Part shown: positions 3,904 through 9,008 of the stretch, in pieces
Layout: every line of letters starts with the position of its first letter
How positions within the stretch are numbered: the first letter of the stretch is position 1
DNA from: an uncultured Nitrososphaerota archaeon
GTDB lineage: Archaea; Asgardarchaeota; Njordarchaeia; Njordarchaeales; Njordarchaeaceae
Direction: 5' to 3'
Length of the DNA stretch: 64,000 bases
Assembly: GCA_964518475.1 (NCBI GenBank)
Contig: CAZFGR010000001.1
Coordinates: 32,001 to 96,000 of the forward strand
Position numbers and translations under genes: made by a program
Notes under the pieces: generated by a model
The model's database searches: none
What the model was told of the DNA's origin: nothing
Seen by the model: only the letters and a program-made list of their open reading frames with translations

Positions 3904-5130
3904 TTATTTCTTACCTCTTTTTCTCTTAGGTTTCTTTCTAGGTTTACCAGGCTTACCAGGAGGACCTCTCTTCTTAACAGTAGGAGGCTTCGGATACTTT
4001 TTCTTAATTTCTTCAATTCTTCTCTCAAGTTCCGCTAATAGTTCGTCACCGATGTATTCTCCACTAAAGTAATCTACTCTAGCCGCTATTGCCAGCTTAC
4101 CAGCTAATGCGCGTGCAATTTTTCCTCTCTGCCACCAAGGGGCTCTGAATATTCTCGGATCTTGGAAAATTATTCCATGCTTTGGTGGTGTGCCTCTTCC
4201 CTGAAGAGCCCTGAATAAAGCTTTCTCAGCACCAAGGATCTGTATGGTACTAGCAGGCATTTTCGCTAGCTCAGCCAATCCACCAGCTTTTCGAATAAGT
4301 TTCGCACCAATAACTGAACCAACAAGAGCCCTAATATTTGGCGCCGTCTCCTTCATCAGATTATCTAGGTATTGAAGAATCCTAGCTTTCTGATCATAGA
4401 GATCAAGAGCTCTTCGAGCTACCTCTTGCATCATTCTTATATCTTCCTCGGTCACTCTGATACCTACTCTCTCTTCCTTTGCTTTAAGGATTTCACGAAT
4501 CAGTTTTTCACTCTTCACTATTTTACGCAGATTCTCCTCTGTGAAATTCTCTACGGAGCCGAGCTCAGCAATGAGTCTAAGATATAGAGGATGATCTTCC
4601 ACTACTTTCCCAAGTTCTGGCCAATAATATCCATACCACTCTCGAACATGTGAGACTAGAGTATTGATCATCTTTGTCAAGTCTTCAGATATTGTGACCG
4701 CCCTTATTATCATTAAATCTCTACGCTCTCCTGCTTCCTGCAGTTTCTCTTTTGCTAACTCTATACTGACCTTATTGACGAATTCTACATACTTCTCATA
4801 TCCGCCGAACAGTTCCTCCAAGTATTCTCGAATCTTATCCCTTATTTTTAAGATCTCGTCGCCTTCCATCACCATCTGTACTGGAATATCTGGGTACTCG
4901 CTTTTTATTATATCTACCAGGAACTCATTATCCGTTTTCAACGACACTTTGCCTATTTTTTCGATCACATCTTTTAATTCATCAATCGTTTGTCGCTTTT
5001 CAAGAGACAGGATCGCTTTAAAAGCCCTTTCTACATCTGGCTTATCATCACCGAATGGTCTAAATATTATGTCTTTTAGACCTTCAGAAATCGCAAATAT
5101 ACCAGGATACGTCACTAGTAACCACATCAT
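3904..5130 (-). CDS. nop5: Box C/D RNP protein Nop5 (Nop56/58)
   Basis: REWYG..WPEL, PASTIQILGAEKALF, PPKHGIIFQ and RGKIARALAGKLAIAARVD motifs; basic tail. Confidence 0.97.
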   Translation of the reverse strand: MMWLLVTYPGIFAISEGLKDIIFRPFGDDKPDVERAFKAILSLEKRQTIDELKDVIEKIGKVSLKTDNEFLVDIIKSEYPDIPVQMVMEGDEILKIRDKIREYLEELFGGYEKYVEFVNKVSIELAKEKLQEAGERRDLMIIRAVTISEDLTKMINTLVSHVREWYGYYWPELGKVVEDHPLYLRLIAELGSVENFTEENLRKIVKSEKLIREILKAKEERVGIRVTEEDIRMMQEVARRALDLYDQKARILQYLDNLMKETAPNIRALVGSVIGAKLIRKAGGLAELAKMPASTIQILGAEKALFRALQGRGTPPKHGIIFQDPRIFRAPWWQRGKIARALAGKLAIAARVDYFSGEYIGDELLAELERRIEEIKKKYPKPPTVKKRGPPGKPGKPRKKPKRKRGKK

Positions 5131-5263: not shown

Positions 5264-5839
5264 ATGTTCGAAGTAGAAATGAAAGCACGAGTCACTAATC
5301 TCCACGCATTACACGAATTCCTTTCCTCAAATAATTTTGAAAAGAAGACCTATGAAACAATAGATTATTATTTTAAACATCCCTGCCGCGATTTTATTCC
5401 TAGAGACGAAGAACTCCGGGTAAGAATAGAGAAAGAGAATAATATCCCACGCATACTAGTTACTTATAAAGGCTCCTCATTAAGCAAAGATCGAAGTGCG
5501 AGGGAGGAGATAGAGATTCCCGTAACTAGTATAGGAATTATCAAACTCCTAATGGGACTCGGTTTTGAAATAGATCTGGTAAAAAGGAAAAAAGGTTTCA
5601 TTTTTTCAAAGAAAGACTTGAAAATCTCTGTATGTGAGGTTAGTGGGATTTTGCAAAGAAAACTGATTAATTTGGGACACTTCGTTGAGGTTGAAAAATT
5701 GGTGAAGAGAAAGGAAGATATTAATCATGCTAGAGAGGAAATCCTTAATATATTAAGGAGCCTTCCTGGAGTAGGAGGCATAGAGACCAAGTATTATACT
5801 GAATTGGTTAAGGAACTTGCTGAGAAGACTCATATTTGA
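5264..5839 (+). CDS. cyaB: CYTH-domain protein (class IV adenylate cyclase / triphosphate tunnel metalloenzyme)
   Basis: N-terminal EVEMK, DYYF..P.RDF, LRVR, TYKG, REEIE, FVEVE and terminal YTEL motifs. Confidence 0.85.
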   Translation: MFEVEMKARVTNLHALHEFLSSNNFEKKTYETIDYYFKHPCRDFIPRDEELRVRIEKENNIPRILVTYKGSSLSKDRSAREEIEIPVTSIGIIKLLMGLGFEIDLVKRKKGFIFSKKDLKISVCEVSGILQRKLINLGHFVEVEKLVKRKEDINHAREEILNILRSLPGVGGIETKYYTELVKELAEKTHI

Positions 5840-6303
5840 ATTCTTGCCGCCAATTTTTCAGCCCATCCCCTAATAATCGATCTAGCCTCGGTCAAAGCCT
5901 CCATTATTTTCCCTATAAACTCTATTAAAAATACCCTCATTGATTCATGCACTCTCTTCGACGCCACATCTGTAGCTTTTATGAGAAGAGAAATATCATA
6001 TCCCTCCTCTGGTTTGTCTAATATCAGCGGAAATCTTCTAGTAATAGCCTTCGCGACCTCCCTTATCAGTAGGCGATCTAATTCATCTCGGGCCGGTATC
6101 TTAACTGATAATATAGCTGAATTAACTGTTTTCTTTAAAAGAATCTCAGGCGGACCCGGGAATTTATATTCCCTATAACCAGCTCTCTCGCACTCTAAAC
6201 ACAGGACACAAGGATAATCGTAACCCTTCTTATCACAATTAAGTACCCTTAAATCTTTAAGAACATCCAGTAATTCATCTATCGAACGGAAAGTTGCCGC
6301 CAA
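5830..6303 (-). CDS. ARPC4-like protein (Arp2/3 complex subunit 4 homolog)
   Basis: TVNSAILSVKIPARDELDRLL...KPEEGYDISLLI matches remembered eukaryotic ARPC4 [21 protein letters not shown]...KPVEGYDISFLI; similar length. Confidence 0.8.
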   Translation of the reverse strand: MAATFRSIDELLDVLKDLRVLNCDKKGYDYPCVLCLECERAGYREYKFPGPPEILLKKTVNSAILSVKIPARDELDRLLIREVAKAITRRFPLILDKPEEGYDISLLIKATDVASKRVHESMRVFLIEFIGKIMEALTEARSIIRGWAEKLAARIQI

Positions 6304-6455
6304 GTGCCTCTCCCTTAAAGGTTTAGTAACTGTTTACTTCTCTAAGACATTTTTCTTAAACGTTTACCGAAATAAAATAAGGTTTCGACAACAATTCTTT
6401 AGCCGAATTATTCTTAAAAAGTTATCCATAATTATGTTGAAGCGGGATATTTGAC

Positions 6456-7553
6456 GTGATTCCTATGAGTGAAGTAAAAATTATAGATGGGTCAATGGGA
6501 GAAGGAGGAGGACAGATCTTTAGAACCGCTATTGCTTACGCAGCAGTTACTCGTTGCCCAGTAAAGATAATCAACATAAGAGCTAAAAGATCCAACCCAG
6601 GTCTACGCCCGCAACACCTTTCTGCATTAAGAGCCTTGGCAAAAATTACTCATGCAGAAGTCCGAGGAGATTATGTAGGGTCTACACAAGTATTTTTTAA
6701 TCCTAAAAAGATAGAAGGCGGAGAATTCGTTATTGATCCAGGCACTGCTGGAAGCATTACGTTAATTATTCAAGCAATTTTGCCCGCTCTAATATTTGCT
6801 GAAAAGAAAAGTATTGTGACAATAAAAGGCGGTACAGATGTACCATGGTCACCTCCTATAGATGCTGTTAGATACGTTCTCTTACCAGGTCTCAAAGATA
6901 TGGGTGTAGAGGCTAAACTAGAGCTTATAAGAAGAGGGCACTATCCAAGGGGAGGAGGATTAGTAAAGTTATATGTTGAGCCAATTACAGAACCATTAAA
7001 GCCTAAAATACTCAAGGAGCAGGGAATTATTGAGAGAATTAGAGGAATCTCGCATTGTGTAAGATTACCTAAGCACGTAGCTGAAAGACAAGCAAGATCA
7101 GCTACTGAAAAGTTAGAGAGCGCTGGATTTAAGAATATAGATATTGAACTAGAGTGGTATCCTCCCGATAAAGATCCTCACCTTGGTCCTGGATCTGGTA
7201 TAGTCTTGTGGGTCGAAACAAGTTCTAATGCTTTATTAGAATATGATAGCCTAGGAGCTAGAGGAAAACGTGCAGAGGTGGTAGGACAGGAAGCCGCGGA
7301 GGGTTTAATCAAACAAATAAGAAATTGTGGAGCAGTAGATGTCCACCATACTGACCAGCTAGTACCCTTCATGGCTCTAGCCAAAGGAGTCTCTGAAATA
7401 TACTCTTCAGAAATTTCCCTACACACATTGACAGCGATCCAAGTAGCACAAATGATAATAGGTGCTAAGTTTGAAGTAAAAGGCTCTCAAGGATCTCCTG
7501 GACTCATTAGAGCTGAAGGTATCGGACTAGAACCACATTGGCTCACATTCTAA
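6456..7553 (+). CDS. rtcA: RNA 3'-terminal phosphate cyclase
   Basis: DGSMGEGGGQ, PGLRPQHL, GGTDVPWSP, RRGHYPRGGG, DQL and HTLT motifs. Confidence 0.96.
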   Translation: MIPMSEVKIIDGSMGEGGGQIFRTAIAYAAVTRCPVKIINIRAKRSNPGLRPQHLSALRALAKITHAEVRGDYVGSTQVFFNPKKIEGGEFVIDPGTAGSITLIIQAILPALIFAEKKSIVTIKGGTDVPWSPPIDAVRYVLLPGLKDMGVEAKLELIRRGHYPRGGGLVKLYVEPITEPLKPKILKEQGIIERIRGISHCVRLPKHVAERQARSATEKLESAGFKNIDIELEWYPPDKDPHLGPGSGIVLWVETSSNALLEYDSLGARGKRAEVVGQEAAEGLIKQIRNCGAVDVHHTDQLVPFMALAKGVSEIYSSEISLHTLTAIQVAQMIIGAKFEVKGSQGSPGLIRAEGIGLEPHWLTF

Positions 7554-7673
7554 AAGAGACAAAAAATGTATCTTATTGTCCTTCTTTAACCATATACTTG
7601 TATTTTTTATGCTAAATAATGTTAATGAATATTTGCTCTATGGTTGGATGATCTTTCTTTCCTAGGTGTTATT

Positions 7674-9008
7674 ATGAAAGCTCCCAAGATTATTGTTCCC
7701 CCTCCCGGTCCTAAAGCTAGAGAAATTATTGAGAAGGGGGAAAAATACTTAGTCACCACTACTAGAGAACCCTATTTAGTAATTGCTAGGATGGAAAATG
7801 ATCTAATTGAGGATGTTGACGGAAATGTCTATATCGATTTCGCAGCTGGTATCGCTGTAGCTAACGCTGGTCACAGAAATAAAGCGGTAGTAGAGGCTAT
7901 TAAGGCTCAGTTAGAGAAATACATCCACTCAGCCCCTCATGATTTTTATGATGATCTCCAGTACAAGGTTGCAGAGAAATTAGCAGAAATAACTCCTGGA
8001 AATTTTGATAAGAAGGTATTCTTTGGTAACAGTGGAACAGAGGCTGTTGAGGCTGCGATAAAAATCGCTAAAGTAGCCACGGGAAGAAAAAGATTTATAG
8101 CATTTATTGGGGCCTTCCACGGAAGAACACATGGTAGCTTATCACTTACCGCTAGTAAACCGGTTCACCAAAGAGGACTATTCCCAACAATGCCCGGAGT
8201 CGAACACGTTCCCTACGCCTATTGTTACCGATGCCCATATAGGTTAAACCCCGACGACTGTGACCTCTGGTGTGCCAAGTTTATAGATGAAGTGCTCTTC
8301 CAGACATATGTACCGCCTGACGAAGTTGCGGCTATTTTTGTGGAGCCTATTCAGGGAGAAGGCGGATATATTGTTCCACGCGATGGTTTTATCCAGGAAT
8401 TAAGAAAAATCGCGGACAAGTATGGAATCTTATTAGTTGCGGACGAAGTTCAATCCGGTTTTGGCCGCTCTGGTAAAATGTTCGCCGTAGAGCACTTTAA
8501 TACAATACCCGATATCATCACAACAGCTAAATCTATAGCGAATGGCGTACCCCTCGGAGCCACTATCATTAGAGCAGATCTTGATTTCAAAGAACCAGGC
8601 ACTCATAGCTCAACGTTCGGCGGTAATGCTCTCGCGCTAGCAGCAGCTTTAGCCAACATCGATTTCATAATAAAGGAGAAATTACCAGAAAGAGCTGCTA
8701 GATTAGGAGAGATTGCTCTTAAGAGGCTAAAGGAGGCCATGGATGAAATCGAGATCATAGGAGATGTGCGTGGAAAAGGCTTAATGATAGGTGTGGAGAT
8801 TGTCAAGAAGAAAGAAACTAAAGAACCCTATCCTGAGGGTCGTAACAAGATAGCAGAAATAGCCCTAAGAAAAGGTCTAGTCCTATTACCTGCGGGTAGA
8901 ACCGCTATAAGAGTAGCACCACCACTCACAATCACCGAAGAACACTTAGAAACAGGCCTAGAAATCCTTATAGAATCAATAAAAGAAGTATCAAAAGAAA
9001 CCTCCTAA
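7674..9008 (+). CDS. Class III PLP-dependent aminotransferase (ornithine/4-aminobutyrate type)
   Basis: NSGTEAVEAA, FHGRT, EPIQGEGG, DEVQSGFGRSG, AKS and TFGGN motifs; ATG at 7674 preferred over TTG at 7644. Confidence 0.9.
   Translation: MKAPKIIVPPPGPKAREIIEKGEKYLVTTTREPYLVIARMENDLIEDVDGNVYIDFAAGIAVANAGHRNKAVVEAIKAQLEKYIHSAPHDFYDDLQYKVAEKLAEITPGNFDKKVFFGNSGTEAVEAAIKIAKVATGRKRFIAFIGAFHGRTHGSLSLTASKPVHQRGLFPTMPGVEHVPYAYCYRCPYRLNPDDCDLWCAKFIDEVLFQTYVPPDEVAAIFVEPIQGEGGYIVPRDGFIQELRKIADKYGILLVADEVQSGFGRSGKMFAVEHFNTIPDIITTAKSIANGVPLGATIIRADLDFKEPGTHSSTFGGNALALAAALANIDFIIKEKLPERAARLGEIALKRLKEAMDEIEIIGDVRGKGLMIGVEIVKKKETKEPYPEGRNKIAEIALRKGLVLLPAGRTAIRVAPPLTITEEHLETGLEILIESIKEVSKETS

Follow-up and report, generated by a model that had tools for sequence, protein, structure and literature searches.

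Background

Eukaryotic ARPC4 (p20-Arc, PF05856; chain F of 1K8K, 6DEC and 3DWL) is always paired with ARPC2 and holds Arp2 and Arp3 (PMC9894260, PMC9295785). Both globular domains of ARPC2 are homologous to the ARPC4 domain, and helix 128-165 of ARPC4 pairs in antiparallel fashion with a helix of ARPC2 (PMC9894260). The ARPC2/ARPC4 pair, for which the term 'clamp' is used in PMC9295785, contributes 60% of the area buried in the contact with the mother filament, and the isolated pair binds F-actin with micromolar affinity (PMC9894260). For eukaryogenesis, the emergence of the Arp2/3 branching machine with its seven subunits is still to be explained, and ARPC4 is the only non-actin subunit of the complex with a clear archaeal relative.

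ARPC4-like proteins of Asgard archaea are catalogued signature proteins (PMC7522288, PMC7444086, bioRxiv 10.64898/2026.10.28.762692), attributed in PMC7444086 to 'some species of Heimdallarchaeota', and Asgard archaea also encode actin-related proteins (ARPs) of unknown function (PMC7444086). We analyzed an ARPC4-like gene of an archaeon of the Njord order, which had been picked out in a sequence-only reading that rightly noted such genes as already reported from Asgard archaea. The gene adds a Njord-order member to this known family and is not a new kind of system. In the papers searched we found no description of a cysteine knuckle or of the oligomeric state of Asgard ARPC4-like proteins; relative to that literature, our additions are modest, namely a probable metal knuckle, a predicted homodimer with a conserved tryptophan, and a fast rate of evolution.

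The ARPC4-like gene and its genomic context

The window, i.e., the whole stretch of DNA analyzed, is 64,000 nucleotides long and belongs to an assembly of 2.33 Mb in 121 contigs that is 91% complete. According to the list of open reading frames and their translations, the ARPC4-like coding sequence lies on the minus strand at 5830..6303, exactly where the sequence-only reading had placed it, with a TTG start at 6303-6301, a stop codon at 5832-5830 and a product of 157 aa (157 codons), for which a database record holds an identical protein. The two strings quoted in that reading, NSAILSVKIPARDELDRLL and KPEEGYDISLLI, correspond to residues 61-79 and 97-108, respectively. Both the TTG start and the length of 157 aa recur in the closest relative, a Njord protein 61% identical to it, and GAGGAG precedes the TTG of that gene. 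In the window, a Shine-Dalgarno-like sequence, GGGAGAGG (6307..6314, minus strand), is located 3 nt before the TTG and is a candidate ribosome-binding signal, and a TATA-like A+T-rich stretch, TTTAAGAAAAA (6350..6360, minus strand), about 50 nt upstream of the TTG, is a candidate promoter; both were read from the sequence. They fall within the 152-bp spacer between the ARPC4-like gene and the divergent gene for RNA 3'-phosphate cyclase (rtcA; 6456-7553, plus strand).

At its other end, the ARPC4-like gene meets a CYTH-domain gene (5264-5839, plus strand) tail to tail, with a 10 bp overlap at the 3' end. A Nop56/58 gene (3904-5130, minus strand) and an ORF presumed, without a family search, to encode a class-III aminotransferase (7644-9008, plus strand) are also found nearby. 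There is no actin gene within the window, and the actin-family matches of our genome search sit on other contigs. With ARPC2, ARPC3 and ARPC5 likewise undetected (see below), the earlier description of a gene standing alone with no actin nearby holds.

A single-protein scan of species-representative genomes returned two nearest loci, both in Candidatus Njordarchaeota MAGs, the nearer of which is syntenic with the window. The adjoining CYTH and Nop56/fibrillarin genes recur within the Njord order only, and in another lineage carbamoyl-phosphate synthase and Nuo genes adjoin the ARPC4-like gene. Outside the Njord order the context is not conserved, and it is never actin-linked at the loci compared. 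We read the context as lineage synteny and rejected the idea of a functional neighborhood; the adjoining genes in the other lineage are unrelated.

The CYTH/ARPC4-like pair is kept in six Njord-family loci (L005, L007, L014, L015, L018 and L024), and the CYTH gene also evolves fast, with 53% identity to its closest relative versus 85-87% for housekeeping genes. In a second Njord-order MAG (L006:1220-2432, plus strand), a fibrillarin gene follows the ARPC4-like gene by 8 bp on the same strand; in the window and in L005, a Nop56 gene is found two genes away from the ARPC4-like gene. This proximity to rRNA-methylation genes is order-level synteny with no evident functional meaning.

Sequence and fold of the ARPC4-like protein

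The Pfam ARPC4 family (PF05856) matches the protein with 40.7 bits (cut-off 22.2; E-value 2.3e-10), residues 53-143 (5875..6147, minus strand) being aligned to positions 60-152 of the 167-position profile; the whole-genome profile search recovered the same match, and no Pfam family other than ARPC4 was matched. When the protein was compared with the PDB using phmmer, significant matches were obtained to ARPC4 chains only, with E-values of 1.5e-8 for Schizosaccharomyces pombe ARPC4 (3dwl_F) and 8e-6 for bovine ARPC4 (1k8k_F). The blocks quoted in the sequence-only reading align residue by residue with 3dwl_F and 9dlx_F, and the conserved blocks are all present, i.e., the NSxxxS strand, the D-capped helix 2 and the P-x-x-GYDIS-F-L-I strand. 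The matched core is marked by N61-S62, D73 and the EGYDIS strand (100-105); over the archaeal and eukaryotic rows together, S62 never varies, and conservation reaches at least 90% at N61 and D73.

These results are in agreement with the structural comparisons. The AlphaFold2 model, computed with 20 homologs, has a mean pLDDT of 94.8 and comprises one alpha/beta globular domain, from which a long helix (residues 116-156; 5836..5958, minus strand) extends at the C-terminus; this helix had been noticed from the translation. In a Foldseek search, one of the checks proposed with the sequence-only reading, nine ARPC4 chains rank at the top (E-values 2e-10 to 4e-8, TM-scores 0.76-0.82), the best TM-scores being 0.82/0.78 to 6dec_F. 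In a VIA all-against-representatives comparison, 1k8k_F scores Z 17.3 with an rmsd of 2.2 Å over 151 of the 157 residues (6-157 on 10-166), and the runner-up, a type III secretion chaperone, scores Z 5.2. Since residues 6-157 align with 1k8k_F, the ARPC4 fold extends to the N-terminal half, outside the reach of the Pfam profile. With a Pfam match above the cut-off and a Z of 17.3, it is virtually certain that this Asgard protein is a true ARPC4 homolog, in line with the sequence-only reading.

Two other groups of proteins show a lesser likeness. ARPC2 (p34-Arc) is a distant relative with Foldseek E-values of about 7e-3 to 1e-2, and the profile of the ARPC4-like family, which includes two eukaryotic ARPC4 rows, matches it with an E-value of 4e-4; however, ARPC2 has two domains and about 300 aa, and the window protein matches ARPC4 far better. 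Type III secretion chaperones and YbjN-like proteins have a similar small alpha/beta arrangement (Z 4-5), which may be just a common one, and tend to form homodimers; they show no sequence likeness to the window protein and have neither the long C-terminal helix nor the cysteine knuckle.

The window protein shares with eukaryotic ARPC4 the fold over its whole length, a similar size (157 versus 168 aa), the NS that opens the third strand, the capping D at helix 2, the EGYDIS strand, and the long C-terminal helix with its basic residues at 141 and 149, whose residues 116-156 are the counterpart of ARPC4 helix 128-165. On the other hand, their identity is only about 20%, and the two differ in several respects: the window protein has a cysteine knuckle where eukaryotic ARPC4 has a longer cysteine-free stretch, has W147 in place of R, has a second copy of itself and not ARPC2 as its predicted partner, and evolves fast, whereas eukaryotic ARPC4 is slow and tightly constrained. 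Furthermore, it is encoded in a genome in which ARPC2, ARPC3 and ARPC5, the partner subunits of the seven-subunit Arp2/3 complex, were not detected.

Distribution, phylogeny and rate of evolution

An exhaustive HMMER search of 1.84 billion representatives returned 27 proteins: about 19 archaeal-type sequences of 144-164 aa matched over their full length, one form of 191 aa, one of 383 aa, and eukaryotic ARPC4, which was matched over residues 53-148 only. The gene is found in 97 of 400 genomes of the phylum, nearly always as a single copy. Nearly all genomes of about 14 family-level groups carry it, whereas in several other groups among these 400 genomes it was not detected; in the largest group, 133 of the 135 genomes sampled had no match, and the other two gave marginal matches (E-value about 3e-4). 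This distribution is wider than the wording of PMC7444086 implies. The window protein is the plain stand-alone form of the family, and its knuckle and W147 are common to almost all members.

In the maximum-likelihood tree, archaeal sequences of one organism family cluster together, the number of label changes being the smallest possible, and the protein of the window falls inside a Njord-order clade (support 95/86). A single clade (100/100) unites the eight eukaryotic sequences; it sits on a long branch of 1.54, and the tree does not fix its position among the archaeal groups (backbone support 66/90, with a long-branch warning). Because of the weak backbone and the long branches, we make no claim as to which Asgard group is closest to eukaryotes.

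The ARPC4-like protein is 61.5% identical to its closest relative, compared with 85-87% for RtcA, Nop56 and the aminotransferase; in another genome, it is 34% identical where RtcA keeps 73%. By these identities, the ARPC4-like gene evolves much faster than the genes adjoining it.

A four-cysteine knuckle specific to archaea

Residues 23-38 (6190..6237, minus strand) form a knuckle with four cysteines, C23, C32, C35 and C38, in the loop that joins helix 1 to the first strand, where the pLDDT of the model is about 93. Each of these cysteines is at least 90% conserved in 42 archaeal rows, and 43 of 44 distinct archaeal homologs share the motif C-x7-9-C-x2-C-x2-5-C, one lineage having a serine in place of the third cysteine. 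In most archaeal homologs these four are the only cysteines of the protein. None of the eight eukaryotic ARPC4 representatives has the motif. As computed from these alignments, the four-cysteine knuckle of the helix 1-strand 1 loop is thus archaea-specific, in line with the earlier remark that such a cluster was not known from eukaryotic ARPC4 and was possibly a metal site.

The knuckle is very probably a metal site. Zinc appears about twice as likely as an iron-sulfur cluster; since between 2 and 5 residues separate the third and fourth cysteines, depending on the homolog, we prefer a zinc knuckle over a ferredoxin-type CxxCxxC site, and ranked a canonical iron-sulfur site of the latter type below zinc. 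The knuckle would then bind a structural metal, most likely zinc, at the place taken by the longer cysteine-free stretch in eukaryotic ARPC4.

Predicted self-pairing

When a complex of two protein copies was predicted from an alignment of 44 rows, the score was 0.61 (0.59, 0.61 and 0.63 in individual runs), compared with 0.00 for the best control. It thereby passes a mark reached by 20 of 30 proteins solved as one-chain pairs versus 1 of 23 solved as single chains, a calibration that is only rough because our own alignment was supplied. At least 86% of contacts recur between runs, and the pLDDT of the partner is at least 80. The predicted interface is symmetric and involves helix 2 (residues 74-91 of the interface; 74-90, 6034..6084, minus strand, in the secondary structure of the model) and the C-terminal helix (121-157), with a crossing at 143/144.

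Conserved positions of the C-terminal helix are G/A140, R/K141, I144, N145 and W147, the last being W in 38 of 42 archaeal rows and R in eukaryotes. Helix positions in the interface are more conserved (entropy 2.30 versus 2.65) and more hydrophobic (fraction 0.51 versus 0.36) than the remaining helix positions, a result that is independent of the predictor.

Since the predicted interface mirrors the antiparallel helices of ARPC2 and ARPC4, the pass may partly be a memory of solved Arp2/3 structures, and a co-folding prediction of this kind shows likeness, not binding. On balance, a homodimer seems somewhat more probable than not. Helix 2 and the long C-terminal helix would join two copies in a symmetric dimer, and the resulting antiparallel helix pair would resemble the ARPC2/ARPC4 clamp, with W147 and the small residue 140 at the crossing. 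The sequence-only reading had proposed a homodimeric ancestor of the clamp: the homodimer gains computational support (0.61 versus 0.00), and 'ancestor' does not, as the eukaryotic clade is unplaced in the tree.

The actin toolkit of the genome

A search for actin, profilin and gelsolin genes, which had been suggested along with the reading, found an actin and probable forms of the other two. The genome encodes a eukaryote-like actin of 407 aa on contig 19 (E-value 1.6e-134 to yeast actin). A profilin-like protein of 118 aa (contig 31, L054:1414-1770, minus strand) lies below the Pfam threshold and matches solved profilin chains (E-values 4.7e-6 to 7pbh_A and 4.4e-5 to 6yrr_A). Similarly, a single-domain gelsolin-like protein of 107 aa (contig 11, L055:1426-1749, plus strand) is below the Pfam threshold and matches gelsolin (E-value 6e-5) and the Asgard gelsolin chain Heimdall 2DGel (9e-5). 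These two proteins are probably the Njord profilin and a one-domain gelsolin. An ALP/MreB-like protein is also encoded. For the actin family, the search of this fragmented assembly yielded one actin, one broken fragment and one ALP/MreB-like gene, with no clear second ARP.

The broken fragment covers 58 codons on contig 19 (L002:1501-1683, plus strand) and matches positions 128-188 of the Pfam Actin profile with an E-value of 6e-15. Stop codons flank it, and it sits at the extreme end of the contig, with the intact actin gene about 11 kb away; it is the remnant of a pseudogene or else an artefact of the assembly.

Profile searches found one copy of the ARPC4-like gene in the genome. ARPC2 (PF04045), ARPC3 and ARPC5 (PF04062 and PF04699, at E-values up to 1) had no match in this 91%-complete genome, a result to be read with the fact that the control genomes could not give positives for the ARPC2, ARPC3 and ARPC5 families. 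With these subunits undetected, the ARPC4-like protein would be a lone Arp2/3-type subunit amid a minimal actin toolkit.

Possible functions of the ARPC4-like protein

The explanation that we favor, with a probability of roughly 0.4, is that the gene is a stand-alone member of the Asgard ARPC4-like family whose product forms a metal-knuckle homodimer that binds actin or an ARP. The dimer would attach to the side of filaments made from the eukaryote-like actin of the same organism, or to an ARP, and would act as a simple accessory or anchoring factor. With its Arp2/3 partner subunits missing, it would not be expected to nucleate branches. Taken by itself, the proposed binding of actin or an ARP is somewhat less likely than not. 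Caution is called for by the absence of actin from the gene context at the compared loci, by the fast evolution of the protein, by the domain's fusions in other lineages and by the failure to detect the family in nearly all sampled genomes of the phylum's largest group. The boldest form of this explanation is quite unlikely: a metal-stabilized symmetric homodimer that clamps the side of the Asgard actin filament and is a living model of the ARPC2/ARPC4 core before its duplication, with a knuckle, lost in eukaryotes, that could confer metal or redox sensitivity on filament binding. If the archaeal protein bound filament sides as a homodimer, the ARPC2/ARPC4 clamp would predate the rest of Arp2/3, and the origin of the clamp through duplication of a self-pairing protein would become directly testable.

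Alternatively, the protein could act on a client other than actin, as a dimeric adaptor or in the manner of a chaperone; the Asgard protein would then keep an older client-binding role, and it would have been recruited into Arp2/3 in the eukaryotic line only. The ARPC4 fold lies within a broad arrangement that resembles secretion chaperones and YbjN, and type III secretion chaperones are its next structural neighbors (Z 4-5), YbjN- and CesT-like clusters providing weak further leads. The compared loci offer no actin-linked gene context, the protein evolves fast, the gene went undetected in most members of the phylum's largest group, and elsewhere the domain occurs in fusions with unrelated modules (an ATC-hydrolase-like cysteine domain and a ribbon), all of which would suit such a role. 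However, the likeness is specifically to ARPC4, with E-values of 1e-8 to 1e-10, the NS, D and EGYDIS blocks and the basic residues 141 and 149; moreover, no other Pfam family is matched, and the rest of a minimal actin toolkit is present in the genome. We regard an adaptor with another client as unlikely, though it is the strongest competitor of the actin- or ARP-binding homodimer.

It is less probable still that the protein is a subunit of an unrecognized proto-Arp2/3, in which it would form a hetero-oligomer with a very divergent ARPC2-like partner and hold ARPs. Eukaryotic ARPC4 with its constant partner ARPC2 and its hold on Arp2 and Arp3 (PMC9894260, PMC9295785) provides the precedent, Asgard archaea have ARPs of unknown function (PMC7444086), and, at 91% completeness in 121 contigs, genes may be missing from the assembly. 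Nonetheless, the genome has a single ARPC4-like gene, ARPC2, ARPC3 and ARPC5 are unmatched (the latter two even at a relaxed threshold), and beyond actin only the ALP/MreB-like protein and the broken actin fragment were found; in addition, the N-terminal domain of the fused relatives is no second ARPC4-like domain (i-Evalues 12-37), and the self-pairing prediction passes.

Equally improbable is a protein that is mainly a redox-sensing regulator, with the four cysteines holding an iron-sulfur cluster or forming a redox switch: the commonest form of the motif, 'CP ... CxxCxxC', recalls the ligands of single-cluster ferredoxins, the hosts are anaerobes of hydrothermal sediments and fused Odin-type forms have a further cysteine-rich domain, but the gap before the last cysteine ranges from 2 to 5 and the third cysteine is lost in one lineage, while cubane sites rarely accommodate variable spacing or cysteine loss, no Fer4 family is matched in Pfam, and the iron-sulfur genes that adjoin the gene vary among loci.

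Fused relatives

Unlike the plain stand-alone form in the window, Odin-type relatives of 377-434 aa carry the ARPC4-like domain between a cysteine-rich ATC-hydrolase/V4R-like domain and a ribbon, and another group has about 200 residues added at the C-terminus of the domain. We considered whether the N-terminal domain of the 377-434-aa forms might be a second ARPC4-like domain, giving an ARPC2-like tandem, and rejected this on i-Evalues of 12-37; its only Pfam match is a weak one to ATC_hydrolase. Language-model neighbors of the protein (DUF2299 and uncharacterized bacterial clusters) score 0.88-0.89, under the 0.9 line, and were treated as leads only.

The domain is placed between two modules in relatives with small genomes (1.3-2.0 Mb), at L044:1949-3082 (minus strand), L045:1140-2444 (plus strand) and L013:977-2128 (plus strand), where a cysteine-rich N-terminal domain with a weak ATC_hydrolase match precedes it and a ribbon-like CPxC...H..DH module is found at the C-terminus. 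The 373-aa protein at L046:1477-2598 (minus strand) has its ARPC4-like domain at the N-terminus, followed by about 200 extra C-terminal residues. At L047:1272-2042 (plus strand), a protein of 256 aa carries about 100 extra N-terminal residues, with a faint ubiquitin-like match (E-value 0.06).
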